64,000 bases of DNA from a virus (IMGVR_UViG_3300032213_001531:40994-104993), one strand, 5' to 3'. Positions 10,090 through 60,002 are shown, counted from the first letter of the stretch. A program made the numbers and translations. The notes: generated by a model from the letters alone, not told the origin.

Positions 10090-10784
10090 TACACTTCTTC
10101 CAATGTACAAGAAACATTCCAGAAGTCATAGTTACTTCCACCACGCTTAACGACAGTATAACTAAAATCTGAAATAAACATTTCTATTAATTCATTATAT
10201 TGTCCAAGGTGTGCGTAAGCTAAATTGTCTTTACCAAAATTAGAATACTTATCATAAGCAAGGTATACCCAAAAAGAACCTTTATGGCTATCATACCAAT
10301 CTACAAGATCTACTCCCCCTGCTCCACCATCAGTGGTGTATTCTTGATTTTGTATTGTAACATTTGGAAGTTGTGAGAATGACGCATCTGTTCCTGGCTC
10401 TCTTAAACCTTCATCAATTAAAGATGTTTTTCCAGATGAGTTAAATGATGGATTTAAACCATGAGATCTAGATGGAAGCATGTTCCAAGATGTACCAATA
10501 GTTAGTTTGTCAGCAATATGATATGAGCGCATACGACCATTAATCATTCTTTCACGCTTTTCAATTCTGTTGTTATTAAAATTAATCTCTCCTCTATTAT
10601 CATCAGATAATATTAAGAATTGATCTAGCAAAGATTGATCTGATATACCAGTAGTATCAGCTTTTACTTCATAGCCGTTGGGAACATAAAGACCATTAGT
10701 AAGGGTTCCTGAGTTATTAGCCCAAAGCATTGCTTGTGGTCTAGCATACTTTCTTCTACCATTGATATATGTTTCTGTTGCCAT
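10089..10784 (-). CDS. distal tail (Dit-like) protein
   Basis: Immediately downstream of tape measure; ends WNVSCTLEEV. Confidence 0.6.
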   Translation of the reverse strand: MATETYINGRRKYARPQAMLWANNSGTLTNGLYVPNGYEVKADTTGISDQSLLDQFLILSDDNRGEINFNNNRIEKRERMINGRMRSYHIADKLTIGTSWNMLPSRSHGLNPSFNSSGKTSLIDEGLREPGTDASFSQLPNVTIQNQEYTTDGGAGGVDLVDWYDSHKGSFWVYLAYDKYSNFGKDNLAYAHLGQYNELIEMFISDFSYTVVKRGGSNYDFWNVSCTLEEV

Positions 10785-35084: not shown

Positions 35085-37115
35085 CTATTTAATTTTAATC
35101 TCACAGTAGTCTGTGGTGCAATAAGACTCTCCAAGTGCTTCAAGATTATCTACCCCGTCATAAATAGCAGAAAAATCAATATGTCCAATACGACCAATGT
35201 AATAATCATATTCTTCTTCTGTAATCTGAGTATAAGGTTGCTGAGGATAAGTATGATTTCCCATTGGAAGGAAGGACACTGCTTTTAGCTGACCCTCATA
35301 CATATGTAAGACTGTTGGAACGTGTTTAGACTCTGTTTCTTTATCAAAAGATAAAGTTACAGAAACTCCATTGTCAGACCAATACTTTTGGGCAGTGGCT
35401 GCAAGAGCAATCTTTTCAAATAAAGTTACATCCTTTTCAGATCTTGCATGACCTGATTTAACTGGGAAGTAAACTACTGACGTATTTGCTGATACTAAGT
35501 CATCTTCAATTTTATACCCTGCTGCTTTAAATAAATGAAGCATTGGATCGGTATTTCCAAAGCGAATAGCACGAAGGAAGAACTCTCCTCCTGGCCCCCA
35601 ATGAACTCCTGGTGTTGCTCCAGAAAGAATTGAAACAGATCCAGATGGCTTTACTGTTGTGACACGAATTGATTCACGAACGCAGAGCCACTCTGAATAT
35701 TGACGATCATACTTACGAATTGTATTATAACCTTCATCCATCCATTCACGAACTGCTGGCAATCCCTTTTGATCTGCAAATGAAGCAATGCCTGTAAGAG
35801 ATGTACCAATACGACGATTGCGCTGCATAATGCCATTTGTTTGTTGCCAGTATGTCGGAAGAAGTGTTACAGTCTTACCGTAAAGATAAGCAAACTTTAA
35901 TGTCTTGAGGAAGTCCTCCTTGGAATCATGACGATTTAAGTGCACCTCTACAAGTGTACAAAGTTCGTATGATTCTAATGGCTGCTCCGCACAAGGATTA
36001 AAGCCCATAACACGATAGTCTTTTCCATCCGCAGGATCTGCAAGACGACCATAGTTACGAGCAACATCAAGCCAAATAAAACCTGGCTCTCCATTGTTTA
36101 CAATTAAATCTGTATATTTTTCATAGTCCATTCCAACTGTTGCTGAAATGGAATTATTAGACATCCAAGCCCAACCTGGATTATCTGAGTCATACGAGTT
36201 GCGCTCTGGAAATATTTCTGGATTTTTGAGATTAATAAAGTCTTCATCCCCTGGAGCACCAAGAGCAAGTGTTGCAGAACGACGTACATTTCCTGAAACA
36301 ACACATGTTCCAATCAAGTTAATGATATCCGTAATAGCACGAGAATCTAGGATTTCCCCTGCTCTGGAGCCAATGACATGATTGATCTTATCATGTAATG
36401 CAATAAGAGGTGCTGGACCGCTGGCAACCCCTCCAAAGCCTTTAATGGGTGCTCCTAGAGGTCTAATAAGGTCGTAATTAAACTTTTGAATAGGTTGATT
36501 TGATCTTAAGTAAGAGTTTAATAGTATACGTACTGATTCTACCCAACCTTCACGAGTATCTGGAATTTCAAATGTAACTGCTGGTTCTGTTGGAGCATAG
36601 ATAGAGAAATTCTTTTCTTGTCCTACTGTATCAAATCCTACACCAATACCAAGCATAAGAGCATCCATAACCCAAGCAAACAAAGCTCCTGGGTCATTCT
36701 TATCAAGATCTTTAGTAGATACCATTGCACAGTTTTGAAGGGCTGCTGAGTTTTTCTTTTCCATTGTCATTGCTGTACCAAATGTCCACATACCACGACC
36801 TGGAGGAGTCCACTTTAGCTCAAACATTCTTTGGAATGCTTCTTGTGCTGACTTCTGTGCCTTATTGTCATTCCATGAAAGACGATTATCTTTAGCATGA
36901 TTCTTTTGAACTGAGTACATTCCTTCAATTACACGGCGACAAACTTCATGCCAACGTTCTTTTGTTCCATCTTCTTTAACACGAGAATAGGTACGAATAA
37001 AAGTAATTTCTCCTAAAGAGTTTTCCCCCGCATCTGAAAATCCAAATGGAGCTGGGATATTACTGTATTTATTTATAAAGTCCTCTGTTAAGCGAAAAGA
37101 AAAAATATCTGACAT
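35085..37115 (-). CDS. nrdJ: class II (adenosylcobalamin) ribonucleoside-triphosphate reductase
   Basis: PPGRG, NCA, GNVRRSA, FNPCAEQPL, TTVKPSG and C-terminal CTTDYC; no beta subunit nearby. Confidence 0.93.
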   Translation of the reverse strand: MSDIFSFRLTEDFINKYSNIPAPFGFSDAGENSLGEITFIRTYSRVKEDGTKERWHEVCRRVIEGMYSVQKNHAKDNRLSWNDNKAQKSAQEAFQRMFELKWTPPGRGMWTFGTAMTMEKKNSAALQNCAMVSTKDLDKNDPGALFAWVMDALMLGIGVGFDTVGQEKNFSIYAPTEPAVTFEIPDTREGWVESVRILLNSYLRSNQPIQKFNYDLIRPLGAPIKGFGGVASGPAPLIALHDKINHVIGSRAGEILDSRAITDIINLIGTCVVSGNVRRSATLALGAPGDEDFINLKNPEIFPERNSYDSDNPGWAWMSNNSISATVGMDYEKYTDLIVNNGEPGFIWLDVARNYGRLADPADGKDYRVMGFNPCAEQPLESYELCTLVEVHLNRHDSKEDFLKTLKFAYLYGKTVTLLPTYWQQTNGIMQRNRRIGTSLTGIASFADQKGLPAVREWMDEGYNTIRKYDRQYSEWLCVRESIRVTTVKPSGSVSILSGATPGVHWGPGGEFFLRAIRFGNTDPMLHLFKAAGYKIEDDLVSANTSVVYFPVKSGHARSEKDVTLFEKIALAATAQKYWSDNGVSVTLSFDKETESKHVPTVLHMYEGQLKAVSFLPMGNHTYPQQPYTQITEEEYDYYIGRIGHIDFSAIYDGVDNLEALGESYCTTDYCEIKIK

Positions 37116-37277: not shown

Positions 37278-37946
37278 TTAGCCATACTTGCTACTATGAA
37301 TATGACACATTTCAATTTCATTTATATTTACGTGACTTGGTAATGAGCCTACCCAATAAATTGCTTCTGCTAAATCCTCAGCAGTTAATGCTTGATCCCT
37401 TTTTTCTTCTTGGGTATCAATAGTTGCTGGACAAATTTCTGTAATCTTAATTCCAAACTGAGGAAACTCAAGTCTCATTGTGTCAATTAGGCCACGTTCA
37501 CCTCTCTTGGCATTTGTATAATTTCCTCCACCACGGTAAGGGACTTTACCACCAAAAGATGTAATAAAAATAATTGTTGGCGATTCTGATCTTTCCATAC
37601 AAGGAGCAAATAGTTGAGATAGGTACATTGGACCAGTGACATTTATGTCATAGGCTTTTCTAAAGTTTTCTGGTGTTTCATTAATAATAAAGGTTGGTCC
37701 AGATCCTCCGCCAGCATTATTTACTAAAAGGTCTAAAGTAATATCTTGATACTTATCAAAGAATTTTTCTATGGCTTGAGAATCTGTAACATCTAATTGA
37801 TAGACTTCAACATTATCAGAGACTAGTTTTGAAACTTTAGATAGGTTTCTTGAAACAGCAATAACCTTATAGCCGTTTTCAGACAGACGTTTAACTGTTG
37901 CTAAACCTACACCTTTGCTTGCTCCAGTTACAATTGCTGTTTTCAA
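37278..37946 (-). CDS. short-chain dehydrogenase/reductase (YdfG-like)
   Basis: TGASKGVG, NNAG, YTNAK catalytic motif. Confidence 0.9.
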   Translation of the reverse strand: MKTAIVTGASKGVGLATVKRLSENGYKVIAVSRNLSKVSKLVSDNVEVYQLDVTDSQAIEKFFDKYQDITLDLLVNNAGGGSGPTFIINETPENFRKAYDINVTGPMYLSQLFAPCMERSESPTIIFITSFGGKVPYRGGGNYTNAKRGERGLIDTMRLEFPQFGIKITEICPATIDTQEEKRDQALTAEDLAEAIYWVGSLPSHVNINEIEMCHIHSSKYG

Positions 37947-38678
37947 TTACATACTCTGGCTTTGATTAAGCTCCATATTATTATGGATCCAATGTCCAGG
38001 AATCATATACTTTACACCAGACTTAACTGTGTGTGCCGTGTGAAAATATGGAGCGTATGCTGGAAATATTACAACACTATTTTCTTTAGGCTTTACACCA
38101 AAACTAATAGCTTTATTTGCAACTGCAAGATCATAGTCTAACTCTACTGCTGGTGCGCCACTTACCCAACCTTCTGAGCTAGTCCATCCACCATCATAGT
38201 CCTTTAACTGAAAAGATATTTCTCCGCCTTCGCAGTCATCATTTAGATACATAACCAAAGAATATCTCAATGTTTTGTCGCCATCTAACTGATCAAAGTG
38301 TGCTCCCATAGCCATTCCAGTATTGTACTTTTTTATGTTAAATGTTGGGAAAAGCCTTGGTTCATCAAAGTCTCCCATAGAGGATGCATAGTCTTTACAA
38401 ACATTATACATCGTAGTCATAACGGCATCATAGATATATTTGCTTTTTTCTGCTACGTCTCCACTAAGATTGTTTATTGCATTAGCATCAAAAGTTTTTG
38501 TTTCTCCGTAGATAAAAGTTTTATCATTAGAAGATGTCCAAGGGTTCCAAACATTTACCCCTAACTCATCATACTGCTCAAGAGTGTCTAGCTCTTTCCA
38601 AACTTGTTTGAATTTATCAAAATTTTCAATTGCGTCAGTATAGTAATATACTTTTGGATCTAGTAGTTCTTTATTCAT
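37947..38678 (-). CDS. 2OG-Fe(II) oxygenase (prolyl 4-hydroxylase-like)
   Basis: HFD...YLNDDCEGGE...FH...K. Confidence 0.9.
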   Translation of the reverse strand: MNKELLDPKVYYYTDAIENFDKFKQVWKELDTLEQYDELGVNVWNPWTSSNDKTFIYGETKTFDANAINNLSGDVAEKSKYIYDAVMTTMYNVCKDYASSMGDFDEPRLFPTFNIKKYNTGMAMGAHFDQLDGDKTLRYSLVMYLNDDCEGGEISFQLKDYDGGWTSSEGWVSGAPAVELDYDLAVANKAISFGVKPKENSVVIFPAYAPYFHTAHTVKSGVKYMIPGHWIHNNMELNQSQSM

Positions 38679-38690
38679 TTGTTTCTCCCT

Positions 38691-39350
38691 TTAGTATCTA
38701 TTCTTTTCATAAAATCCTTTTTCTTTAATAAATCCAACCAAAACATATCTAATTGGTCCTGGACCTACATGTTTTACTCCATGATTATATTCTGCTGTGC
38801 CTGGAAAAATAAGCATTGATCCAGGATCAGGTTTAAACTCTAAACCATTGTTTGGAAAAAACAACTCTCCATCAACATAATCATTATTTAAATACAGAAT
38901 AGCAGCGTACCTAATTGATGGGTCTGTATCTTGATCTGTGTGAGCTTTTAACTCGACACCCTCTTGCATCCTTTGAATAGTTGCAAAACCACTTAACTCT
39001 ATGGTATCGTCAACATTTTGAACTAAATCATTTAGTCTATTAAAAAAATCTTTTTGAAATGAATGATTGCTAATGTTTAAATTTTTATCTTGCCAATTTT
39101 GAGTTATTTCAAATTTACCTTCAGCAACTAAATTATCAACATCATCTCTGCCAAATTTTTGCATACAAAAGTTTTTTAGGTTACCATGATACTCTACAAA
39201 CCACTCTTCATTGGGCGTTGTATTAATAATATCAAAAACTTTATCTAAATCTTCTTTAGAGAAAAAATCTTTTACCAACAAGACATCGTCAGTAATTTCT
39301 TCAATTTGAAAACTATTTTCCTCTAAAATGTTTTTTAAGAAGTTAGACAT
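38691..39350 (-). CDS. 2OG-Fe(II) oxygenase (P4H-like)
   Basis: HTD...YLNNDYVDGE...HGV...R. Confidence 0.9.
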   Translation of the reverse strand: MSNFLKNILEENSFQIEEITDDVLLVKDFFSKEDLDKVFDIINTTPNEEWFVEYHGNLKNFCMQKFGRDDVDNLVAEGKFEITQNWQDKNLNISNHSFQKDFFNRLNDLVQNVDDTIELSGFATIQRMQEGVELKAHTDQDTDPSIRYAAILYLNNDYVDGELFFPNNGLEFKPDPGSMLIFPGTAEYNHGVKHVGPGPIRYVLVGFIKEKGFYEKNRY

Positions 39351-40101
39351 TATTTCCTAAATCCTCAACTTTGTACTTGTTTCCATCAGCATCTAGCTTC
39401 CAACCTTCTTTTAAAAGATCTTGCCATTCAGCTCTTTCAATTTCTTGTTTAGCTCTAGTCTCTTTCATCTCTGCAGCCCAGGCATCTCTTAGCTCTTGTG
39501 GATAAGCATCTTCTTCTCTATCATCCCAGAAAGATCCTATAGTGTATCTTACTCCACTTTCTATTAATGATACTTCGTGCATATTGCTAAATCCCCCGTC
39601 AAAAACAGCAAGCATTCCAACTTCTGGTTTAATCTCTATGTTATGACTTGGAAACTTAAGCAGTCCCCCCTCAAAGTCATCGTTTAGATATAGGAACCCT
39701 GCATAACGACTTCTTGTAAAGGCTCCAGAATTTCCTTCAGCATCTGTGTTATCTGAATGAATTCTTGCGTATGCTCCTGGCTCCCATTTTTGAGTATGGT
39801 ATCCAATTTTAGAAATTGTTTTTGGATCAAGGTCATGTACTGAAGCAATTGCCTCTGGCATTGTTTTTTCAATGTCTGAAAAAATAGTTGGAGATAGTCC
39901 AGCGTCAAGCAATTCTTTATCGTTGTCTTGTGGCAGTACTGAAGAATATGACTCATAAAAAGAAATAGGCATCCAAGAAAGTGCACCATTATCTGCCTGA
40001 GCATCTAATGCTTGAATCATTTTTTTGCAATCTTCTTTACTTATAAAGTTCTTATAAATAACTATATCTTTTGTTAGTCTAACTTTATCGTTTAGGTTCA
40101 T
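39343..40101 (-). CDS. 2OG-Fe(II) oxygenase (P4H-like)
   Basis: HSD...YLNDDFEGG...HEV...R. Confidence 0.9.
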   Translation of the reverse strand: MNLNDKVRLTKDIVIYKNFISKEDCKKMIQALDAQADNGALSWMPISFYESYSSVLPQDNDKELLDAGLSPTIFSDIEKTMPEAIASVHDLDPKTISKIGYHTQKWEPGAYARIHSDNTDAEGNSGAFTRSRYAGFLYLNDDFEGGLLKFPSHNIEIKPEVGMLAVFDGGFSNMHEVSLIESGVRYTIGSFWDDREEDAYPQELRDAWAAEMKETRAKQEIERAEWQDLLKEGWKLDADGNKYKVEDLGNNV

Positions 40102-40985
40102 TGTATTCTTACTCCATTTTCTATTACAGCTCTTTGCGGATGCTTTAGTCTAAACTGCTCGTCTAAATCTTTTTGCATTTCCGCCCAAACATCTTTTCCA
40201 AACTCTTTTTCTTTTTCATACCAATCATCAGTTCCTTTTTGATATTTTTGCCAATACATTCTTGACAAGAACTTATTATTTTTATATGATGGCATAACTC
40301 CATGTAAATATGGTTTTCCTTCTTCTGTCAGATAGTCTGGGTGTCCTGATGGAAAAACTAAAACATCTCCTGCTTCTGGTTTATACTTTACAAGCTTATC
40401 TCCCATTGCAAAATCAATCTCGCCACCCTCGTAGTTATCATTAAAATATATTGTAGATGTTATTACAAACTTATATCCTGGAGTATGACCTTGCTCTCTT
40501 ATATAGTCTGAATGATAGTTCATTCCAACCGTACTATATTCATTGCTTACATGGTATTTGCCTATTGTTCCGCCAGCCCATCTCCAAGTTGGAATAGGAT
40601 TGCCATCATCGTCTATAGACATTGCATCTAAATCTACGTCTAAATTATGACTCTTGATATAGTCTTCTGTAGCTAAATAAAAATTGTCCATCATTTCAAT
40701 TACAAAGTTTTTATGATTTTCTTGCGTTTCTGTTGATGTTTCTACATCTTTCATATTTCCATATCTATCATTCATAGAGAATTGAGGAGTTATTGGATTT
40801 AAGTATTCTCCAAAAACAGACCAAGTGGTCCAAGGATTAAACAAACCGTCTTCTGTTTCCGATAAAGAATCTGTTAAAATTTTATAAGATTTTTCAATAT
40901 CTTTAAAAAGATTTTTGTACACAACAATATTTGGATATATTTCTATTGACTCAAGTTTATTATTGTTTGGCCAAGGATATGTCAT
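40098..40985 (-). CDS. 2OG-Fe(II) oxygenase (P4H-like)
   Basis: HSD...YFNDNYEGGE...HGV...K. Confidence 0.9.
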   Translation of the reverse strand: MTYPWPNNNKLESIEIYPNIVVYKNLFKDIEKSYKILTDSLSETEDGLFNPWTTWSVFGEYLNPITPQFSMNDRYGNMKDVETSTETQENHKNFVIEMMDNFYLATEDYIKSHNLDVDLDAMSIDDDGNPIPTWRWAGGTIGKYHVSNEYSTVGMNYHSDYIREQGHTPGYKFVITSTIYFNDNYEGGEIDFAMGDKLVKYKPEAGDVLVFPSGHPDYLTEEGKPYLHGVMPSYKNNKFLSRMYWQKYQKGTDDWYEKEKEFGKDVWAEMQKDLDEQFRLKHPQRAVIENGVRIQ

Positions 40986-41665
40986 TATGGTTGCCTATCT
41001 CCTGTATGCTTTGTAATTTCCCAGAAAAATGGGCATGTAAATCTTAGGCCACTTTTGATTTCAGTAACTCCATGAATATAGTTTTTATCTCCTGGGAAGA
41101 AGTATGCAGCTCCTTTTTTAGGCTTAAACTGCACACCTTGTAAAGGGAAGTATAGCTCTCCACCCTCATAGTCATCATTTAAATAAAACAAACTTGAAAG
41201 ATCATAGTTTGGAAAATCATTAGGGGTTCCAGCATCAGGTCCCTCGTGCAATTCTTTATCAGCATGAGGCTTTTGAAATTGTCCAGGAAGCCATTTAACA
41301 ATAGTTGTTCCAGTTGGATGAACCTCTACTTTGTAAAAATCTTCAACTATTGGCTTTAGTCTTTGAAACAAACCAGCAATAACTGGTGCAATTGTAGGGT
41401 CATTTTTATCTAAACTTGGAGTTGTTGCAACTCTATCTTTCCAATAGTCAGAATCGTAAGTAACAGTTCCATTTTCATTCATGTGGCTTTCGGTTACATC
41501 CCAAATTGTCAAAGATTTGGCAGCTTTTTCTAAAAACTCAATTTCTTCTTGAGTCATAAAATTTTCTAGCTCAACAATCATGTCTTTGCTATCTCCAAAC
41601 CAACCAGATGGAGTTATAGATGGTGTTCTTTTAACTACTGTGTACGACTCGTTATTTTGTTCCAT
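40985..41665 (-). CDS. 2OG-Fe(II) oxygenase (P4H-like)
   Basis: HAD...YLNDDYEGGE...HGV...R. Confidence 0.9.
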   Translation of the reverse strand: MEQNNESYTVVKRTPSITPSGWFGDSKDMIVELENFMTQEEIEFLEKAAKSLTIWDVTESHMNENGTVTYDSDYWKDRVATTPSLDKNDPTIAPVIAGLFQRLKPIVEDFYKVEVHPTGTTIVKWLPGQFQKPHADKELHEGPDAGTPNDFPNYDLSSLFYLNDDYEGGELYFPLQGVQFKPKKGAAYFFPGDKNYIHGVTEIKSGLRFTCPFFWEITKHTGDRQP

Positions 41666-41683
41666 GTTTTATTATACCATTTC

Positions 41684-42409
41684 CTATTCGTAGAATCTCT
41701 TAGTCCAGACTTCTTTTTGATAAACTCCGCCATCTGGGACACGATATTTTTTACTATTTTCTATATTATGATTCATCATTTCAGAAGCAGTTGGAACAGT
41801 TATTTCGGATTTCCAATCTTCCCTCAAAAATGGAAGCAACTGAGCATAAGGAGTTCCTGCTGGAAGAACTCCAGTCCAACCTTTTTGTACAAAAAATGGA
41901 AAAGATCCAGGCAAATTAACTTTGTCATTATCAATAATTCCAGAAACTGTCATAATTGGAAGATCGTATCTATTAAATGGGGCAACATATAAAACGCTAT
42001 AGCCATCTGGAACCTTTACTGCCCAATCTGGCATCCAAGCAAAATGATAATTATAGTATCCTTCTGGATGACGAAATTGTGGCATAGGAGTTCTTCTTGT
42101 AGCAAAATCTTTATACATTGGATCTTCAATTTTAACATCAATTTGCCCTGCGCCGTCAAGGAAAAATTCTATGTCACAGGGGGTTACAAGGCTATACCCC
42201 GTTGTCAAAATATCAAGAATTGCAGGACAGGCTTTCCATGTAGGGATCTTTCCCTTGTCTGGCCCTATCCAATATTCTCCATCTGGTTTTTTAGCAAATC
42301 TATCAGCTTCTTTATACCACTGTGGCATTGATCTTGAAATTGGTATTGGCTTTGATTTACTATCTTTACTTAGCCAAGGCCTATTAGTTATAAACTCAAT
42401 AATTTTCAT
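41684..42409 (-). CDS. conserved phage protein, DUF6065-related/dUTPase-like beta fold (putative)
   Basis: PQWYK, CPAILD..GY, SGIIDND, GTPYAQLLP. Confidence 0.55.
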   Translation of the reverse strand: MKIIEFITNRPWLSKDSKSKPIPISRSMPQWYKEADRFAKKPDGEYWIGPDKGKIPTWKACPAILDILTTGYSLVTPCDIEFFLDGAGQIDVKIEDPMYKDFATRRTPMPQFRHPEGYYNYHFAWMPDWAVKVPDGYSVLYVAPFNRYDLPIMTVSGIIDNDKVNLPGSFPFFVQKGWTGVLPAGTPYAQLLPFLREDWKSEITVPTASEMMNHNIENSKKYRVPDGGVYQKEVWTKRFYE

Positions 42410-43122
42410 TGTTCACTCTTTGTATTATCAATAACACTTAGCTTTAAATTTTTAACTTCATGAGATCCGACAGATTCGCCTTTTTCATTTACTGCATTTC
42501 TATACCAGTCTGTCCATTCACCTAATTTATTTATTTCTTGAGCAGCAGCTCCATAAGCGTTTACAGAATCACTATATTCTTGAGTATGAATAAAGTCAAC
42601 TATTTCAATTGACTCATCTTTTAAAGAAGTTAAAGATATAGGAATTATTGTTGCTACTGGAGTTCCTGCCTTAATGACAACTTCTTGATTAGGTATTCTG
42701 CATTTAATTGCTAATGGAAAATCAGTATTTAAAAATGAAGTTGAGATTAAAGAAGACATTACCTCAAAGTTTTCATTAAAATAATTTTGAGGAGTAATTG
42801 TCAATACGCTTATATCTTGAGCAGTTCTCAAAATAAAACCAGTATTAAAACTAATTGTAGATTGACCTCTACCAGTATAGACATATTCTTTACCTTCTAA
42901 AATTGTTACATTATCACCACTTGTATCATTTACACCATTCCAAATAAATTTTAAATCTATTGGCAAAGAAATGCTCCAGCCTATAACATTAGCAGAAGTT
43001 ACTGGATGACACCTATAGGCATGACCTTGAGGAGTTTCATCCATCCAATCTCTTTTAATTGACATTGGCTCTATATTTAATGCCATTGGTGTTTTTTTAT
43101 AAGCAGTGATAATTGACATCAT
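42406..43122 (-). CDS. DUF6065-like protein
   Basis: RDWMD...AYRCHPVTSANVIGW...GTPVATIIP; family name from recall. Confidence 0.6.
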   Translation of the reverse strand: MMSIITAYKKTPMALNIEPMSIKRDWMDETPQGHAYRCHPVTSANVIGWSISLPIDLKFIWNGVNDTSGDNVTILEGKEYVYTGRGQSTISFNTGFILRTAQDISVLTITPQNYFNENFEVMSSLISTSFLNTDFPLAIKCRIPNQEVVIKAGTPVATIIPISLTSLKDESIEIVDFIHTQEYSDSVNAYGAAAQEINKLGEWTDWYRNAVNEKGESVGSHEVKNLKLSVIDNTKSEQ

Positions 43123-43790
43123 GACCCAGTCTCTTGATACATCTCTGGAGTATGATACTTATCGCTATAGTCAAGCATTGTTACCAAAGAATACTTTGTT
43201 CCAGAGTGAACAACTTTAGCTTGATGTGGATACATAAAATTAGATGGGAACAATACAACATCTCCAGCTTTTGGAACATATGTAATTCCCTGAAGTCTAA
43301 AGAATAACTCTCCACCTTCAAAATTATCATTAATATAAGCAACTAAAGATAGTGTACAGTTATATGAAAATCCATGATCATGATGTTCCATAAAGTGTTG
43401 ACCAGGCTCATACTTAATATAATTAAAAGCTTCCCAGTATCTTAGGTTATTAATATTAAAGCGTCTGCAGTAATCTTCTACTGCTAACTTTTGTCTATCA
43501 TAACAGTCTTGCCAAATGCCCTGAAGTTTTAAGGAGTCTGGAGATACGTCTCTTTCAATGTCTGTTTTCTTAAATTTAAAATCAACGCAGTCTCTATACT
43601 CTGGCATTCTTTGTTGATAACCAACATAAGCTGGTTGCCAATTATAGTTTGGTCTGTCATTATTTAAAACCTCTTCCAACCTATCAATGATGTTTAATTC
43701 TGTTGGTAAAACGTCGTGGTAAACAAAAATTCCTGGAGCAATCTCTTCATAGCTACTCCAAGGTGCTGATGTTGTATTTTCTGTATTCAT
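43119..43790 (-). CDS. 2OG-Fe(II) oxygenase (P4H-like)
   Basis: HHDHG...YINDNFEGGE...PH...K. Confidence 0.9.
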   Translation of the reverse strand: MNTENTTSAPWSSYEEIAPGIFVYHDVLPTELNIIDRLEEVLNNDRPNYNWQPAYVGYQQRMPEYRDCVDFKFKKTDIERDVSPDSLKLQGIWQDCYDRQKLAVEDYCRRFNINNLRYWEAFNYIKYEPGQHFMEHHDHGFSYNCTLSLVAYINDNFEGGELFFRLQGITYVPKAGDVVLFPSNFMYPHQAKVVHSGTKYSLVTMLDYSDKYHTPEMYQETGS

Positions 43791-43803
43791 ATTTTCTCCT
43801 ATT

Positions 43804-44523
43804 TTAATTTCCTGTGTGACCTAAAAGATTAATGTCTGTCATAATGACAACACAGTATTTTGTTCCTGTTTTCATTGGCAAAGAAGCATGCTCATATATA
43901 TAGTTTGAAGGAAATATTGCTATATCTCCAACCTTTGGGGTATGAACAAAATTATCTAATCTTGGAAATTTAATTTCTCCACCTTCGTAATCATCATTAA
44001 TATAGATTACCGCAGAAACAGTACAATTATAAGCTGGACCATGATCGGCATGTATATTAAAATGAGTTCCTTCACCTTCATACTTTACAAAGTTAAATGC
44101 TTCATAATATGTAACATTTATCCCCCAGTAGTGTGCATAATCATCTATACACAATTTTAGTTTTTGATATATCTCTTCATGCAAATCAATCAAATCAGCA
44201 TTATGTTCATCTCTTGGACCAAGATTTTCTTGCTTATATTTAAAGTCTACAGCATCTCTTGCTTTTTTGATTGGAACAGTAGAGTTTGTTACCTGTGCTT
44301 CAGACCACTTATATTTATTATCCCCTGAAAGATTGTGCTCAAGAGTATTGATATATCTATCTGAATCATCTTTTGAAAAAACATTATGATAAATATTTAA
44401 ACCTAATCCTGGATTGCTAATCGAGATATTACTTTGAGGCATTAATCTTGAAATTCTTGTTGAGGCTGTTTCTGATCTATCTTTAGTAAACCAGTGATTA
44501 TCGTTTTCATCATATACTTGCAT
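43804..44523 (-). CDS. 2OG-Fe(II) oxygenase (P4H-like)
   Basis: Start MQVYDEN after AGGA; HADHG...YINDDYEGGE...EH...K; close paralog of 43119..43790. Confidence 0.9.
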   Translation of the reverse strand: MQVYDENDNHWFTKDRSETASTRISRLMPQSNISISNPGLGLNIYHNVFSKDDSDRYINTLEHNLSGDNKYKWSEAQVTNSTVPIKKARDAVDFKYKQENLGPRDEHNADLIDLHEEIYQKLKLCIDDYAHYWGINVTYYEAFNFVKYEGEGTHFNIHADHGPAYNCTVSAVIYINDDYEGGEIKFPRLDNFVHTPKVGDIAIFPSNYIYEHASLPMKTGTKYCVVIMTDINLLGHTGN

Positions 44524-44596
44524 GTGATTCCTATCTTTTAATGGTATGGTTTTATTATAGCATAAAAGTACTATTTGAAGCAAGATATAGCGAGTG

Positions 44597-44863
44597 TTAC
44601 CACTTATTGATAGGGCAAGTAGCGTGAGCCATTGTTGTTTTTATTTTCATAAAGCAGCCACATTTTTTACATTGAGATGTTAGTTTAATTAGTTCTGGAC
44701 AAGATTTGCATATATCAAATCTTTCTTTTGCAACTGATTCTTCAACATATTCAGTTTTTGGGTTTAATAAATCCCAAGGCTTTGCTGCTCTGTGTTTTTC
44801 TATATTTTCAACCATTTCTTTGTTGGCTTCTTTATAGACTTCCCAAGGTGTTTTTTCTGACAT
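44597..44863 (-). CDS. small Cys-rich metal-binding protein (DUF6171-like)
   Basis: RFDICKSCP...CKKCGCFM...ATCPINKW. Confidence 0.75.
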   Translation of the reverse strand: MSEKTPWEVYKEANKEMVENIEKHRAAKPWDLLNPKTEYVEESVAKERFDICKSCPELIKLTSQCKKCGCFMKIKTTMAHATCPINKW

Positions 44864-44882
44864 AACTACTTCCTGTTATATA

Positions 44883-45227
44883 TTAGTTATTATTAAATCC
44901 GTTAACAGCATCATATTTCCAACCAACTTGAACAACTTCTGGTTCTGAAATTACTGCTATTACGGGATTACTCATAAGCATTGTATAAAGGCCCTCGTCA
45001 GAGGCTACTGGCATATATGTATTTTCATCAACTGAAATTGTAAAATAATACATATGTGGATATTGATTATTTGTCAAAGCTCTTTTTTCTTCTGTTTGAT
45101 CTATAATGGTGTGTTCTTGTAAAAGAACATTAGCCATTGCTTCTGGCACAGTCATAATTTTTTCAACTACACCGTCTAAAATAAAACCTACAGCGGTTGG
45201 ACCAACCACAGTTTTTCCAGTAATCAT
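44883..45227 (-). CDS. hypothetical protein, possible fibre/adhesin assembly factor
   Basis: C-terminal VGWKYD..GF motif; directly after adhesin-like gene. Confidence 0.55.
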   Translation of the reverse strand: MITGKTVVGPTAVGFILDGVVEKIMTVPEAMANVLLQEHTIIDQTEEKRALTNNQYPHMYYFTISVDENTYMPVASDEGLYTMLMSNPVIAVISEPEVVQVGWKYDAVNGFNNN

Positions 45228-45284
45228 TATTGCTCCCTTTTGTATACTATAAGTATACCATTTAGATTTTTGTTTGTCAAGATG

Positions 45285-46283
45285 TTAGCAACCGCCACCA
45301 TCAAAGCATCCTGGGCTTGAGCAAGCTCCACCGCAACAGAACACTGTACAGAAGTTTGGTGAGCAACAGCTAGGAGAACATGATCCTCCGAAGCCATTAC
45401 ATGCTTGTGCAAAGTAAGGTGGGAAGAATGGGAATGAAGGTGGGAAGAATGGAGGGAAGAATGGTGGGAAGAACGGGAAGAACGGGAAGTAAGGGAAATA
45501 TGGTGGGAAGAACGGTGGGAAGAACGGTGGGAAGAAAGGTGGGAAGAACGGGAAGAATGGAGGGAAGAACGGTGGGAAGAATGGAGGGAAGAAAGGTGGG
45601 AAGAACGGGAAGAACGGGAAGAATGGTGGGAAAAATGGCGGGAAGAACGGGAAGAATGGTGGAAAGAATGGGGGAAAGAATGGAGACAAAGTAGTAATAG
45701 ATCCAGATGCAGGAGAAGCAGCGCTTGTACCATTAGCATTAGTTGCTGTAACTGTATAGGTTTGTGAAGTTCCAGCAGTATCTGCAATAACAATTGGAGA
45801 AGTAGCACCTGTTCCAGAAGTACCGTCAGATCCTGTTACAGTATAACCACTGATTGTCTTTCCACCAGTTGATGGGGCTGAAAAAGCAATTGAGTTTTGA
45901 TTTACGCCAGCTGTTGGAGTTGGAGCAGACATGGTTGCAGGAACTGTTGTTGCGGTAATAGAATCTGAAGCAGTTGAGGCTGCTGAAGTTCCAGCAGCAT
46001 TGCTTGCTGTTACAGTAAATGTATATGCAGTAGCAGACTGAAGTCCAGCTACAGTAATTGGAGAAGATGAACCAGTTCCAGTAAATCCTCCAGGACTAGA
46101 TGTTACAGTATAAGAAGTTGCTGCTGGAGATAGCGCAGGTAAAGAAAAAGATACTGTTGCAGCACCATTATTAAAGGCTCTTCCAGTTCCAACATCTGTT
46201 GCTGTTGCTCCTGTTGGTGCCAATGGCTCTAAAAAGTCATTTGATGCTTGTGACTTCTTACCTATTCTCTTACCTGATGCCAT
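45285..46283 (-). CDS. adhesin-like protein: two FN3 domains, (Pro/Phe) tract, 10-Cys C-terminal domain
   Basis: GLQSATAYTFTVTASNAAG and YTVTATNANG FN3 motifs; about 91-aa tract almost entirely P/F; CNGFGGSC...CFDGGGC end; GGAG RBS. Confidence 0.85.
   Translation of the reverse strand: MASGKRIGKKSQASNDFLEPLAPTGATATDVGTGRAFNNGAATVSFSLPALSPAATSYTVTSSPGGFTGTGSSSPITVAGLQSATAYTFTVTASNAAGTSAASTASDSITATTVPATMSAPTPTAGVNQNSIAFSAPSTGGKTISGYTVTGSDGTSGTGATSPIVIADTAGTSQTYTVTATNANGTSAASPASGSITTLSPFFPPFFPPFFPFFPPFFPPFFPFFPFFPPFFPPFFPPFFPPFFPFFPPFFPPFFPPFFPPYFPYFPFFPFFPPFFPPFFPPSFPFFPPYFAQACNGFGGSCSPSCCSPNFCTVFCCGGACSSPGCFDGGGC
45411..45683. repeat. degenerate 9/12-bp coding tandem repeat (PFF/PPFF)
   Basis: GGGAAGAA(C/T)GG(T/A) units. 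Confidence 0.95.
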
Positions 46284-46316: not shown

Positions 46317-48701
46317 TTACGCTGTCAAGTCGCCAAAGACAACCCATGTATTTGCTGCTCTCTTAAAGAGAGTTGCAGATGACCATTGAGTTCTTAGCTT
46401 TAATCCTGGGGTTGAGTTAACTGTTACTCCAGTGTCTCCAGCAATTGTTACTTGTCCTGCTCCAGTTTGAAGAATATCAATAGATGTTCCTACTGGATAT
46501 GCTACTGCTGTATTTGTAGGGATTGTAATTGTTGTAGCTGTTGCTTTTGAAACTTCAATTAGTGAATCTCTTTCAGTTAATGCTGATAGTGTATAAGAAT
46601 CTGTTTTTTGAACAATTGGTGTCCGTGAAGGAACGCCTTCCTTTGTTTGTGTACCGTCTGTAAATGCTACACCTGAAGCAGAGGCTGTAATTAATCCTGA
46701 TGCTGTAAGTGCTGCTACGTTACTTGTACCAGTGAATGTTGGTGATGCAAGTGGAGCAAATCCTGAAATGCTTGCACCTGCAGGAATTGTTACTGTTCCA
46801 GTAAATGTAGGTGAAGCAATTGGGGCTTTTAGTCCAATTGAGGTTGTTAGTGTTGTAGATAAGTTTGCATCATTTCCAAGAGCGGTTGCAATTTCTCCAA
46901 GAGTGTCTAAAGTTGAAGTTGCGCTATTGACAAGTGCTGATATTTCTCCACGAACATAGGCAGTTGTTGCAACTTGTGTAGTGTTAGTTGTTGCTGCAGC
47001 CGTTGGTGCAGTAGGAGTGCCTGTAAGTGCTGGTGAAGCAAGAGGAGCAAATCCTGAAATTGATGCTCCTGCTGGAATTGTTACTGTTCCTGTGAATGTT
47101 GGAGATGCAAGTGGTGCTTTTGCAGTAAGGGCTGTATCAAGACCTGAAATTTTTGATGTTGCAATTGCTGCTGAAGAAGAAATATCTCCATCAACAATTG
47201 TTCCATCAAGAATCATTGTGCTTGTTACAGTGCCAGAAGGCAATGTTACAGTGCCTGTAAAGGTAGGTGAAGCTAATGGTGCTTTAGCATCTAATTGAGT
47301 CTGAATAGATGATGTAACTCCATCTAGATATCCAATTTCAACATCTGAAACATTGGCAACAGTTGCTTGCTTACCATTTAATTGTGTTTGGATAGATGAA
47401 GTAACTCCATCAACGTATCCTAATTCTGTTGAAGAAACAGTTGATGAAACTGCAAGCTTTGTCCAGTCAATTGCTGCTGCTGAATTTATATCGCTATTAA
47501 CAATTGTTCCAGCAACAATTTTTGCTGATGTAACTGAATCATCTCCAAGTTTAGCAGTAGTTACTGCACCGTCTGCAATCTTTCCAGTTGTTACTGATAA
47601 TCCACCAATTTCATTAGTTCCAACTGAATCATCTGACATCATTGATTGAGTAATTGTGTTTGCAGGTAGTGTTACTGTGCCTGTAAATGTTGGTGAGGCT
47701 AAAGGAGCTTTTGCATCAATTTGAGTTTGAATAGCTGAGGTAACTCCATCAAGGTATCCTAATTCAGTTGCTGAAAGGCCTACAATAACATCTTGCTTAT
47801 TATTTAGCTGTGTTTGAATAGCTGAGGTAACTCCATCAACATAGTTTAGTTCAACTGTAGATAAGGTTGCTCCATCAAGGATATTTAGCTCTGTAGCTGT
47901 TGCTGTAAGTGCTACTGCTTCATTAACAAGTGGGGAATTTACAGTTGCGGAAGTTAAAGTTTTATTAGTTAATGTTTCTGTTCCTGCAATTGTTGCTAAA
48001 TCAGCATCAGAAACTGCGGTATTAAACTGTGCAATTGTTCCACTTACTGTATTTGCATTTAAGTTAATAGTTTTATTTGATAATGTCTGGGTGCCGTCAG
48101 CAAGTACTACGGTACCTGTAGCATCTGGAAGTGTAATAGTTCTGTCTGCTGTTGGGTCTACAACAGTAAGGCTTGTTTCAAATGCGTTTGCTGTTAAACC
48201 TTCAAATTTAATTTCATTTTGAACATTAAGGATTGTACTATCAATAATAGTTGTTGTTCCTGATACTGTTAAGTCTCCTGATACTGTTACATTTCCGCTA
48301 CCGTCAGCAAGAAGAACTGTTCCTGTAGCATTAGGAATAGTAATAGTGCGATCAGCTGTTGGGTCTGTTACCTGTAAAGTTGTTTCAAATTCATTTGCTG
48401 TAGCGCCTTCAAAAACAACGCCAGTCTTTGTTAATACATTAAATGTAGCATCGAGTTCTGCAACTCCAGATGCTGCGCCTTTCTCTGTAAGAAGAATATA
48501 GTCGTCAAGAGATCCACCAAGGTCTTCAAGGTTTTTAAAATATGAAAGGTCGATCCAGTGACTAATTCCGTCACCAATTTTGAATTGACCAGTATCGCTT
48601 TCAAAACCAATTTCGCCAGCAGCGAGGATTGGACCATCTCCATTATTTAAAGAAATCCATTGCGCTGCAGTTCCTCTGCGCTGTTGCATTCTTGTTGCCA
48701 T
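46317..48701 (-). CDS. tail fibre protein (Mtd-N-like N-terminus)
   Basis: RRGTAAQW...GEIGFESDTGQFKIGDG; internal repeats APLASPTFTGTVT and GYxDGVTSxIQTQL; C-terminal WVVFGDLTA domain. Confidence 0.85.
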   Translation of the reverse strand: MATRMQQRRGTAAQWISLNNGDGPILAAGEIGFESDTGQFKIGDGISHWIDLSYFKNLEDLGGSLDDYILLTEKGAASGVAELDATFNVLTKTGVVFEGATANEFETTLQVTDPTADRTITIPNATGTVLLADGSGNVTVSGDLTVSGTTTIIDSTILNVQNEIKFEGLTANAFETSLTVVDPTADRTITLPDATGTVVLADGTQTLSNKTINLNANTVSGTIAQFNTAVSDADLATIAGTETLTNKTLTSATVNSPLVNEAVALTATATELNILDGATLSTVELNYVDGVTSAIQTQLNNKQDVIVGLSATELGYLDGVTSAIQTQIDAKAPLASPTFTGTVTLPANTITQSMMSDDSVGTNEIGGLSVTTGKIADGAVTTAKLGDDSVTSAKIVAGTIVNSDINSAAAIDWTKLAVSSTVSSTELGYVDGVTSSIQTQLNGKQATVANVSDVEIGYLDGVTSSIQTQLDAKAPLASPTFTGTVTLPSGTVTSTMILDGTIVDGDISSSAAIATSKISGLDTALTAKAPLASPTFTGTVTIPAGASISGFAPLASPALTGTPTAPTAAATTNTTQVATTAYVRGEISALVNSATSTLDTLGEIATALGNDANLSTTLTTSIGLKAPIASPTFTGTVTIPAGASISGFAPLASPTFTGTSNVAALTASGLITASASGVAFTDGTQTKEGVPSRTPIVQKTDSYTLSALTERDSLIEVSKATATTITIPTNTAVAYPVGTSIDILQTGAGQVTIAGDTGVTVNSTPGLKLRTQWSSATLFKRAANTWVVFGDLTA

Positions 48702-53360: not shown

Positions 53361-54422
53361 TTAACAGCTTCCTCCATCAAAACAACCAGGGTCTGAACAA
53401 CCAGAGCCACAACAGAATGTGGTACAGAATAATCCAGCACAACAATTTCCACAAGGTCCTCCAAACTCAGTACATGCTGCTGGAGCAAAATAAGGTGGGA
53501 AGAACGGTGCTGGTGCAAAGTAAGGAGGGAAGAACGGTGGGAAGAACGGTGCTGGTGCAAAGTAAGGTGGGAAGAACGGAGGGAAGAACGGTGCTGGTGC
53601 AAAGTAAGGAGGGAAGAATGGAGGGAAGAATGGTGACGGTCCACCTGGAGAACATGAAGGTCCAGTTGTGCCATAAATTAATGAATCTAAACATTCTCCA
53701 ATGTATGAACAGTATCCATTTCCAAGGTCACTTGAAGTACATTCCTTATAAAGCACTGTTGCAAAGTAAGGTGGGAAGAACGGTGGGAAGAACGGTGCTG
53801 GACCAAAGAACGGTGGGAAGAATGGAGGGAAGAATGGTGCTACTGCGTAGTTATGTGTAAATGTTATTGTTTGACTTGCTGCTCCAGGATTAACCGTAAT
53901 TGTGACGGTATAAGACTGAGCATTAACCATATTAACTAAATCGCCAGGCCAGGAAGCAGTATATGCTCCGTAGTTGTATAGTGATGGATAATTTGTAGCG
54001 CCATTGGTGGATGTATATAGATAATTAGCTATATTTGATCCAGTCCAAGAAAGAGTTCCAGTCGTTGTGCTATTAGCTGTATATGTAAGGTTTGAAATTG
54101 TTGCACTTGGCGTTGGAGTAAAGTAAGGTGGGAAGAATGGTGGGAAGAATGGTGGGAAGAATGGGAAGAATGGTGGTGCTACATAATTATAATAAACAAA
54201 ACTTACAGAAGATTGATAGTCAGCAAGTGTTCCTGATGTTGGTGTTTGAGACGCTACTTTATTTGATAAACCTGAATCCCCAGTATTTGTTGTAGAACTT
54301 GAAGAATAAGTTAAACCACTATTTGCAATTGCTGTTTGTGCTGCTGTATTTAATAGACCGATTAAGTTTGGTACTGCTACCATTCCTTTGGATGCTGCCC
54401 AACGGCCTATAAAACCCAGCAT
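53361..54422 (-). CDS. adhesin-like protein: PASTA domain, three Pro/Phe tracts, Ig/FN3-like domain, 4-Cys and 10-Cys domains
   Basis: VAVPNLIGL...KVASQTPTSG PASTA motif; (PFFP)n and APAPFFPPFFPPYF repeats; CTEFGGPC...CFDGGSC end. Confidence 0.85.
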   Translation of the reverse strand: MLGFIGRWAASKGMVAVPNLIGLLNTAAQTAIANSGLTYSSSSTTNTGDSGLSNKVASQTPTSGTLADYQSSVSFVYYNYVAPPFFPFFPPFFPPFFPPYFTPTPSATISNLTYTANSTTTGTLSWTGSNIANYLYTSTNGATNYPSLYNYGAYTASWPGDLVNMVNAQSYTVTITVNPGAASQTITFTHNYAVAPFFPPFFPPFFGPAPFFPPFFPPYFATVLYKECTSSDLGNGYCSYIGECLDSLIYGTTGPSCSPGGPSPFFPPFFPPYFAPAPFFPPFFPPYFAPAPFFPPFFPPYFAPAPFFPPYFAPAACTEFGGPCGNCCAGLFCTTFCCGSGCSDPGCFDGGSC

Positions 54423-58768: not shown

Positions 58769-59359
58769 ATGAAAATCAATAGAATTTCTCCAGACCTATA
58801 TGAGATTGAGGACTTTATTACAGTCGATCAACAAAAAGAGGTTTTAGATTTTGCATCAGGATTAGATGAAGAGCAATGGTGGCTATCATTTGATGATGAG
58901 TATAAAAAGGGTTTGTGGTATGGAAAACAATATAACGGTGAAAAAAATCCAGTATTTAAAGAGATAGACGATCAAATTAATAACCTATTTGAATCATTAC
59001 TATATGTAGGACAAGTAGCACTTCAAAGATATCACAAGGGTGATGCTATTCAAGAACATAGGGACTATTGGTTAAAGGATGAGCCATATCACATCAGATA
59101 CGGTATATGTTTATATTATAATGACGAGTATGCTGGAGGAGAACTTGAGTACTCAGAGTTAGGTATTGTACATAAGCCTAAATCTAGGTCTTTAGTTATG
59201 CATGGTGGTAATATCCTGCATAAGTCATTACCTGTTACTAATGATCTCCCCCGATATTTTTCAACATGCTTTGTAAGAGGATCAAAAGAAAGTCCAGTTC
59301 TTTTAAATAAAGAACTCTTTAGCGAAATAGAGGAACACGATGGATCAACGTATCAATGA
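58769..59359 (+). CDS. 2OG-Fe(II) oxygenase (P4H-like)
   Basis: HRD...YYNDEYAGGE...LH...R. Confidence 0.88.
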   Translation: MKINRISPDLYEIEDFITVDQQKEVLDFASGLDEEQWWLSFDDEYKKGLWYGKQYNGEKNPVFKEIDDQINNLFESLLYVGQVALQRYHKGDAIQEHRDYWLKDEPYHIRYGICLYYNDEYAGGELEYSELGIVHKPKSRSLVMHGGNILHKSLPVTNDLPRYFSTCFVRGSKESPVLLNKELFSEIEEHDGSTYQ

Positions 59360-60002
59360 ACGAGTAATTGAGATAAACAATATGACTCGACCAGAGTTTG
59401 AAAAACATATGCGAGACAAAAGAGATTCTATGAGATCATCTGATAGCTTTGCTTTAGATATCTTAGAATATAAGAAAAATGGATATTATGTAGAAATGGG
59501 ATCAGCAGGTCCTATAAGTGGAAACACAACCTATAAAATGGAAAATGAATATGACTGGATAGGTGTTGGTTTTGATTTAGATAAAAGAAACGTAGATGAG
59601 TATAACTCTGTTCGCAAAAACCCTTGTTTAATGCAAGATGCCACAACATTTGATTATCTAAAATACTTTGAAGAAAACAACTTTCCAAAACAAATAGATT
59701 ACCTTCAAATTGATATTGAATCTCCAATGGATAAAGGTGGAAGACCTATTGCTCCTATTGGAACACCATTGAATGGTTTAATTGCCCTGCCATTATCTAG
59801 ATATCGCTTTACCGTGATTTCTTTTGAACACGAATATATTATCAACTATAAGAATGCTTCCTTGCGTGATGCTCAGCGAGAAATTCTAAATAACCTTGGA
59901 TATTCTTTAGTTGCAAAGATAGGTCATGAAGACTGGTGGGTAGACTCTACTGTTATTCCATATGAGATCTATAAGTATTATGGAAGATACGAAGCACCAT
60001 AA
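59340..60002 (+). CDS. FkbM-like SAM-dependent methyltransferase
   Basis: GYYVEMGS, IDYLQIDIE, ISFEH, EDWWV. Confidence 0.8.
   Translation: MDQRINERVIEINNMTRPEFEKHMRDKRDSMRSSDSFALDILEYKKNGYYVEMGSAGPISGNTTYKMENEYDWIGVGFDLDKRNVDEYNSVRKNPCLMQDATTFDYLKYFEENNFPKQIDYLQIDIESPMDKGGRPIAPIGTPLNGLIALPLSRYRFTVISFEHEYIINYKNASLRDAQREILNNLGYSLVAKIGHEDWWVDSTVIPYEIYKYYGRYEAP

Follow-up and report, generated by a model that had tools for sequence, protein, structure and literature searches.

An uncultured lake phage encodes what appears to be a conserved phage module: a fibre-region protein carrying an encoded (PPFF/PFF)n polymer and, directly downstream, an array of intact Fe(II)/2-oxoglutarate (2OG) oxygenases of the prolyl 4-hydroxylase (P4H) type. 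The module occupies positions 37278-46283 of a 64,000-nucleotide stretch (IMGVR_UViG_3300032213_001531:40994-104993), which was analysed as a whole and is called the window here. The window is the final part of a 105-kb IMG/VR record that is ~97% complete by the CheckV estimate, and its G+C content (GC) is ~36%. We put the probability that the oxygenases hydroxylate the tract at about one half, judging from sequence, structure models and analogy.

Gene content of the module

All genes in the region lie on the minus strand. The order is tract protein, a 114-residue open reading frame (ORF), DUF6171, oxygenases 1 and 2, two DUF6065 proteins, oxygenases 3–7 and a short-chain dehydrogenase/reductase (SDR). 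Start and stop codons overlap or lie at most 20 nt apart from DUF6171 through the SDR, which is followed by a 162-nt gap before a ribonucleotide reductase (RNR) gene. The first-pass annotation, made from the sequence alone, had described a gene with a Pro/Phe tract and a 10-Cys tip, followed on the same strand by a small ORF, seven HxD...H oxygenases, two DUF6065-like genes and an SDR, and the ORF and Pfam calls agree with this. The genes and their parts are as follows.

45285..46283, minus strand: tract protein, 332 residues, intact ORF, with a conserved N-terminal segment, an FN3 region, the PFFP tract and a Cys-rich tip (ORF call, Pfam FN3)
about 45411..45683, minus strand: Pro/Phe tract of ~91 residues in PPFF and PFF units (composition count, TRF)
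45288..45401, minus strand: Cys-rich C-terminal tip, 38 residues with 10 Cys, near-identical to the tip of a second tract protein (sequence)
44883..45227, minus strand: 114-residue ORF with no family in Pfam or PHROG, found in few relatives only (ORF call)
44597..44863, minus strand: DUF6171, a small Cys-rich protein, E 8e-8 (Pfam)
43804..44583, minus strand: oxygenase 1 (PF13640, Pfam), whose true start may be an internal Met 20 codons downstream
43119..43790, minus strand: oxygenase 2 (PF13640; Pfam, model), a type that divergent phages also have next to (PPxF)n proteins
42406..43122, minus strand: DUF6065 copy a, dUTPase fold with a degenerate motif III, E 1.2e-30 (Pfam, model)
41684..42409, minus strand: DUF6065 copy b, a paralogue that keeps the IIDND and AQLLP motifs (PHROG match, alignment)
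40985..41665, minus strand: oxygenase 3 (PF13640, Pfam), the most conserved member, of a type also kept in divergent phages
40098..40985, minus strand: oxygenase 4 (PF13640, Pfam), missing from some relatives
39343..40101, minus strand: oxygenase 5 (PF13640, Pfam)
38691..39350, minus strand: oxygenase 6 (PF13640, Pfam)
37947..38678, minus strand: oxygenase 7 (PF13640, Pfam)
37278..37946, minus strand: SDR with TGxxxGxG and YxxxK motifs, E 1.5e-41, which ends the array in most relatives (Pfam)

Counted over a 98-residue stretch that takes in a few flanking residues, the tract contains 41 Pro, 46 Phe, 3 Tyr and 2 Ser, and TRF reports periods of 12 and 33. The FN3 match covers residues 40-106 of the tract protein (E 2e-8), and in our reading a second FN3-like stretch may follow it. 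Two ORFs of 193 and 104 residues in other frames over the tract were rejected as by-products of the repeat.

The oxygenases resemble prolyl hydroxylases in sequence and fold

An additional oxygenase gene lies elsewhere in the window.

58769..59359, plus strand: eighth PF13640 oxygenase, outside the array (Pfam)

The seven array genes match PF13640 with 33-48 bits and the eighth with 29.2 bits, at a gathering cut-off of 27. The active sites are intact: the HxD...H triad is invariant in all eight proteins (H178, D180 and H232 in oxygenase 1 numbering), and each carries a basic 2OG-binding K or R ~10 residues past the distal His. Pairwise identity is only 20-40%, so the set is old and diversified and does not stem from a recent duplication. 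The eighth gene overlaps the start of a further gene with a weak FkbM-type methyltransferase match (plus strand, 58769-60002).

A joint profile of the eight oxygenases matches the P4H of Bacillus anthracis best (5.6e-12), followed by human P3H1, PiuC, the P4Hs of PBCV-1 and Chlamydomonas, and lysyl hydroxylases. Tet-like enzymes reach 1e-3 at best, and two of the oxygenases show weak, sub-threshold Tet_JBP matches in Pfam. The model of oxygenase 2, the sole oxygenase modelled, has a predicted local distance difference test score (pLDDT) of 89. Its top ~40 Foldseek matches in the PDB are all PHD2, Pseudomonas PPHD or algal, viral and bacterial P4Hs, and they include an algal P4H with a (Ser-Pro)5 peptide and the PBCV-1 enzyme vCPH (5c5t). 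The first-pass annotation had pointed to a prolyl-hydroxylase type of oxygenase, and both the joint profile and the fold of oxygenase 2 bear this out. Taken together, these matches support placing the array oxygenases in the peptidyl-prolyl hydroxylase clade, and activity on peptidyl-proline is predicted. A complex prediction of oxygenase 2 with tract residues 195-250, run without controls, gave a score of 0.00, which speaks neither for binding nor against it. Among cultured phages, the best matches of oxygenase 2 are only ~30% identical cyanophage and Methylophilales-phage oxygenases.

The second-ranked Foldseek match, Pseudomonas PPHD, is an EF-Tu prolyl hydroxylase. It brings in the possibility that the oxygenases hydroxylate other proteins, such as host translation factors, ribosomal proteins or other phage structural proteins, and that the tract proteins are merely co-regulated neighbours. 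The many paralogues, the eighth copy elsewhere in the genome and the oxygenases of relatives with other tracts would agree with this. We nevertheless judge it improbable, for it leaves unexplained why the size of the array follows the type of tract and why these neighbours recur beside a second (PPxF)n architecture, as described below.

Array size follows tract type within the phage family

IMG/VR holds more than 298 relatives of the tract protein, of which 146 loci were analysed together with the window (147 in total); 121 were informative for cross-tabulation and the rest are truncated. The gene order in relatives is tract protein, sometimes DUF6171, oxygenase 1, DUF6065, oxygenase 2, DUF6065, oxygenases 3-7, SDR and RNR. 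Every PFFP locus that reaches far enough (85/85, 66 of them with distinct proteins) carries 4-10 oxygenases, with a median of seven. The other 36 loci have non-PFFP tracts (Y[SA]FTP, FGxFGF[ST]P and FGA types) with zero or one oxygenase, and the RNR or a later gene follows directly. G001, a complete array-less genome with YSFTP-type linkers in both tract genes, has one PF13640 gene in 109 kb. Covariation of the oxygenases with P/F tracts had been proposed as a check by the first-pass annotation, and it is observed: PFFP tracts always stand with an array, which is absent or reduced beside the other tract types.

The composition of the tracts differs in the same direction. PFFP tracts contain 40% Pro and 6% Ser/Thr/Tyr, and Y[SA]FTP tracts, which have no oxygenases, contain 46% Ser/Thr/Tyr. 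The difference is compatible with, though no proof of, a scheme in which the hydroxyl groups of a tract are either encoded or supplied by enzymes.

To what extent the co-occurrence is independent of common descent depends on the tree that is used. On the RNR tree, eight state changes are found, at least six of them forced, and tract type and array agree in six of six independent pairs (p 0.031). The discord between this tree and that of the tract protein indicates that the block of fibre/tract genes and array is exchanged between otherwise close genomes; the RNR-tree result therefore mostly shows the tract gene and array recombining, as a block, relative to the RNR. No part of the locus varies as much as the short segment that separates tract from array, where a Cys tip or a Hint domain may be present or both may be absent, and where the 114-residue ORF and DUF6171 are found in some loci and not in others. 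Despite this variable spacer, none of the analysed loci is a recombinant with one partner and without the other, which argues against pure linkage.

Where a genome has two or three tract genes, they all share one repeat type (PFFP, YSFTP, FGFTP or FGVFGFSP). Tract genes 7-9 kb upstream always have the repeat type of the first tract gene, also in array-less types (for example G001 46721-47278 and 38272-38547). One repeat type per genome points to gene conversion, co-assembly of the tracts or a shared modifier.

A second tract architecture has the same neighbours

Searching bacterial and archaeal genome contigs with a DNA pattern for PFFPPFFPPFFP yielded 28 matches, comprising 17 chance matches (short, out-of-frame or non-coding) and 11 true tract genes. 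An oxygenase or DUF6065 gene is nearby in none of the 17, and a P4H-type oxygenase is present in the fetched stretch of 7 of the 11. Five of the 11 encode a different, small protein that consists of a PASTA-like domain and a (PP[FYHW]F)n tract with the end FK. Its gene stands directly after a tail-fibre gene and adjoins genes for an oxygenase-3-like protein, an oxygenase-2-like protein and DUF6065, sometimes on the opposite strand.

Relatives of this small protein in IMG/VR come from contigs whose GC is 33-55% and whose gene orientation varies, and 26 of 28 informative loci have such oxygenases in the flank. Of the two exceptions, one has its array next to a second tract gene at a distance of 12 kb, and the other is a 14.5-kb fragment without one; a whole-record search raises the count to 27/28. 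Loci L193-L228, L170, L176, L183, L187 and L192 encode PASTA-like proteins with (PPFF/PPYF/PPHF/PPWF)n tails, some of them His-rich and most ending in FK, partly at higher GC. With a stricter pattern, 115 in-frame tract genes were found in IMG/VR, 56 of which have at least 4 kb downstream. An oxygenase accompanies 50 of these 56 and DUF6065 accompanies 44, and the median distance to the nearest oxygenase is 360 bp. These loci thus have as their conserved core a (PPxF)n protein with two P4H-like oxygenases and DUF6065. Among cultured phages, neither megablast of the region nor tblastn of the tract protein, DUF6065 or the small PASTA-tract protein gave a match.

DUF6065 has a dUTPase fold

The first-pass annotation had placed the two DUF6065 genes in the tailoring array; here their products turn out to have a dUTPase fold and not to be oxygenases. 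Both copies match phrog_7084, and copy b aligns with copy a. The DUF6065 model (pLDDT 79) has 57 Foldseek matches with E <1e-3, and those listed are all dUTPases. VIA-align gives Z 10.7 to human dUTPase, and its top 23 matches are all dUTPases, dCTP deaminases or herpesvirus dUTPase-related proteins, except TLP20. A cupin or oxygenase assignment was rejected, as cupins score Z 3 versus Z 10 for dUTPases. Sequence searches of the PDB with DUF6065, both as a single sequence and as a profile, returned no match and no dUTPase.

By our reading of the motifs, the alignment consensus has only a motif-III-like IIDxD and a motif-IV-like AQ(I/L)(I/L)P, together with an invariant Cys38. The Gly-rich motif V of dUTPases is absent, the C-terminus being a helix, and copy a lacks IIDxD. 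The five-motif set of catalytic dUTPases is thus not seen in DUF6065 at the sequence level. Because the fold matches and the Gly-rich motif V is missing, we name DUF6065 a dUTPase-fold protein only.

This fold, the RNR as the next gene and the Tet_JBP matches of two oxygenases could together suggest that the cluster modifies nucleotides or DNA. We regard this as the least likely explanation, and as a very improbable one. The oxygenases group with prolyl hydroxylases, with Tet-like enzymes far lower; the DUF6065 motifs are incomplete, as described above; and the array recombines freely relative to the RNR, with no RNR homologue beside the mapped divergent (PPxF)n modules.

Surroundings of the tract protein

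The flanks of the module and the second tract protein are as follows.

46317..48701, minus strand: tail fibre gene, 794 residues, directly upstream of the tract protein (Mtd_N 3e-11; tail-fibre PHROGs)
35085..37115, minus strand: class II RNR, in the downstream flank and outside the module (family match)
53361..54422, minus strand: second tract protein, 353 residues, with a PASTA-like N-terminus, three PFFP linkers and nearly the same Cys tip (sequence, Pfam)

The PASTA-like N-terminus of the second tract protein is slightly under the Pfam cut-off, and relatives of this protein were found at 12 loci only. The first-pass annotation had taken the tract protein for a receptor-binding virion protein, a role for which the sole basis is the position beside fibre genes. 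We therefore speak of a putative virion or receptor-binding protein; besides its position, the FN3 and PASTA-like domains and the tip common to the second tract protein are consistent with such a role. At 10784-21625, the window also contains an ORF of 3613 residues; if, as we presume, this encodes the tape measure protein, the tail would be very long.

In place of the Cys tip, about 37 relatives (for example L042:10811-11365 and L033:9634-10188) have a Hint domain of ~170 residues, a bacterial intein-like (BIL) domain, after the tract. In these proteins a Cys directly follows the tract, and ...HN(K) forms the C-terminus. The Hint profile matches the BIL domain 2LWY (6.5e-8) and then mini-inteins, and Pfam finds Intein_splicing in 9 of 20 members and Hint_2 in 4 of 20. 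These features imply that the domain may cleave itself off, or ligate the C-terminus of the tract, in the relatives. Some other relatives end right after the tract.

DUF6171 had been described in the first-pass annotation as a Cys-rich metalloprotein of the array. It follows the Cys tip instead: it stands immediately after the tract gene in 20 of the 40 variants with a Cys tip, 1 of 38 with a Hint domain and 0 of 23 without a tip (Fisher p 3e-9, uncorrected for relatedness), and so seems tied to the tip and not to the array. Metal binding is not evident in its sequence. Elsewhere, DUF6171 is often paired with a lone oxygenase.

A promoter scan gave counts no higher than in shuffled sequences, with one good sigma-70-like site just past the stop of the tract gene (45280-45252, minus strand), and a terminator scan of the region found no clear terminator. 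The host is probably an actinobacterium, judging from a WhiB-family gene outside the window (G000:C1:16527-16700), an RNR that is 60-62% identical to actinophage RNRs, and the PASTA-like domain.

Comparison with known systems

The system is akin to a combination of two things already known, namely viral P4Hs with Pro-rich repeats and phage dioxygenase arrays. The closest array is gp41-gp54 of cyanophage Syn9, a tandem dioxygenase array for which secondary-metabolite synthesis was proposed and no encoded substrate was named (Iyer, Abhiman, de Souza and Aravind 2010, PMC2938197). Both arrays consist of many distinct tandem 2OG oxygenases with a dUTPase-fold protein that carries a conserved Cys, directly after tail-fibre genes. 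Syn9 gp43 (L236 16055-16843) is a DUF6065 homologue, which matches the DUF6065 profile with 1.6e-19; the Cys invariant in the alignment here is Cys38. However, the Syn9 oxygenases are mostly of other families, and the P4H-type profile matches gp51 only, and weakly. Syn9 also has two tryptophan halogenases and a JmjC-like member, for which there is no Pfam match in 37278-46283, and it has no Pro/aromatic tract protein nearby, the neighbours gp36, gp38 and gp39 being extremely Gly-rich.

In line with the Syn9 proposal, the product or substrate of the array could be a small molecule (a secondary metabolite, a short peptide or a free amino acid), or the array could reprogram host 2OG/succinate pools; its adjacency to the tract gene would then reflect an accessory, hypervariable region next to the fibre genes. 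That Syn9 shares the dUTPase-fold protein and lacks a tract is in favour of this explanation, as is the presence of oxygenases in genomes without PFFP tracts, and small-molecule chemistry is the more usual setting for SDR and dUTPase-fold proteins. We consider it unlikely. Protein prolyl hydroxylases, rather than hydroxylases of amino acids or metabolites, are nearest in sequence and fold; a second architecture shows the pairing again, on distant contigs and with rearranged gene order; and Pfam finds no non-ribosomal peptide synthetase, ATP-grasp or halogenase gene in the region.

A viral P4H acting on viral repeats has a precedent in PBCV-1, whose P4H hydroxylates the virus's own Pro-Ala-Pro-Lys repeats in vitro (PMC3634087, PMC7019647). 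Both systems combine a viral P4H-type enzyme with viral Pro-rich repeats, and the PBCV-1 enzyme (A085R, PDB 5c5t) is among the sequence and fold matches of the array. PBCV-1 differs in that it has a single enzyme, a Pro-Ala-Pro-Lys repeat and a eukaryotic host, and the enzyme is not adjacent to the substrate gene.

Collagen and extensin hydroxylation, by collagen P4H and by plant and algal P4Hs, likewise concerns prolines in extended repeat polymers of extracellular structural proteins. The phage system differs in having no Gly-X-Y and no Ser-Pro, a bacterial cytoplasm as its setting and seven paralogues. Mussel foot protein 1 is a parallel for hydroxylated prolines in an adhesive repeat protein.

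The layout had also been compared with that of clusters for ribosomally synthesized and post-translationally modified peptides (RiPPs). That comparison stands in part. A ribosomal, repetitive, substrate-like sequence is encoded beside several tailoring enzymes in more than 100 related loci. However, the tract is C-terminal in a folded protein of 332 residues, some relatives end in a Hint domain, no leader peptide or recognition element was found, and Pfam scans of all genes in the region gave no PqqD-like domain, protease or transporter domain.

Discussion

Gene content, intact active sites, P4H-like sequence and fold, and co-occurrence with a Pro/Phe tract are observed in this analysis. From these we infer the tract as the substrate, the residue that is modified and any effect on the virion. 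We propose that, in the infected cell, several of the oxygenases would hydroxylate prolines of the tract and also those in the PFFP linkers of the second tract protein (53361-54422). The paralogues may act on different positions or ring carbons, and the SDR may act on the resulting hydroxyl. The two dUTPase-fold DUF6065 proteins also belong to the module. Hydroxylation would add polar groups to a very hydrophobic rod that is otherwise free of hydroxyls, and array-less relatives encode Ser, Thr or Tyr in the tract instead.

Several observations weigh against this proposal. The tree of the N-terminal 195 residues of the tract protein has only two or three state changes, one of them forced by well-supported branches. 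Because tract and array are adjacent, one block replacement can switch both, which leaves few independent events. The agreement of repeat type between tract genes also holds in array-less types, so that gene conversion or co-assembly could explain the agreement of the second gene.

The correspondence of array and tract is not strict either. A small FGFTP clade is intermediate: behind its tract gene come a pair of DUF6065 genes, a pair of oxygenases and an SDR-like gene. Outside PFFP genomes, G010 has four scattered P4H-like oxygenases, and in G009 a pair of oxygenases adjoins two DUF6065 genes, with a third oxygenase next to the RNR. The occurrence of the same array in relatives without a Pro-rich protein had been named beforehand as counter-evidence; P4H-like oxygenases do occur without PFFP tracts, in smaller numbers. 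Six of the 56 tract loci found with the stricter pattern lack a nearby oxygenase, all on incomplete records. One of these records has a six-gene array elsewhere, one has a single sub-threshold PF13640 match and one is a 14.5-kb fragment (13% complete); the remaining three, on records 5-48% complete, have no PF13640 match.

Seven enzymes for one simple repeat are also more than proline hydroxylation alone needs, and PBCV-1 virions contain no detectable hydroxyproline (PMC7019647).

A more elaborate, RiPP-like pathway can be envisaged, in which prolines are oxidised at several ring positions and aromatic residues are oxidised as well (beta-hydroxy or catechol-type), and the SDR and the dUTPase-fold proteins process the result further. 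The product would be a heavily oxidised adhesive rod on the virion, either mussel-glue-like or rigid. We consider this pathway improbable; if true, the orphan dUTPase-fold family would gain its first assigned function, and so would the big oxygenase arrays that cyanophages carry.

In aquatic phages, cyanophages foremost, the number of 2OG-Fe(II) oxygenase genes goes up to two dozen, and according to a 2022 cyanophage paper what these viral genes do had not been investigated. Our literature search found no paper on Pro-Phe tracts, DUF6065 or hydroxyproline in phage proteins. In the module described here, such enzymes are paired with a simple encoded polymer that can be synthesised or co-expressed, a pairing seen in two protein architectures and in hundreds of phage fragments. 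An old question about phage oxygenases thereby becomes testable, and the value of the finding is that it names a concrete, easily tested candidate substrate. If the tract is indeed hydroxylated by the array, this would be the first prolyl hydroxylation of a bacteriophage structural protein, and it would provide a function for DUF6065 and a new Pro/aromatic biopolymer.

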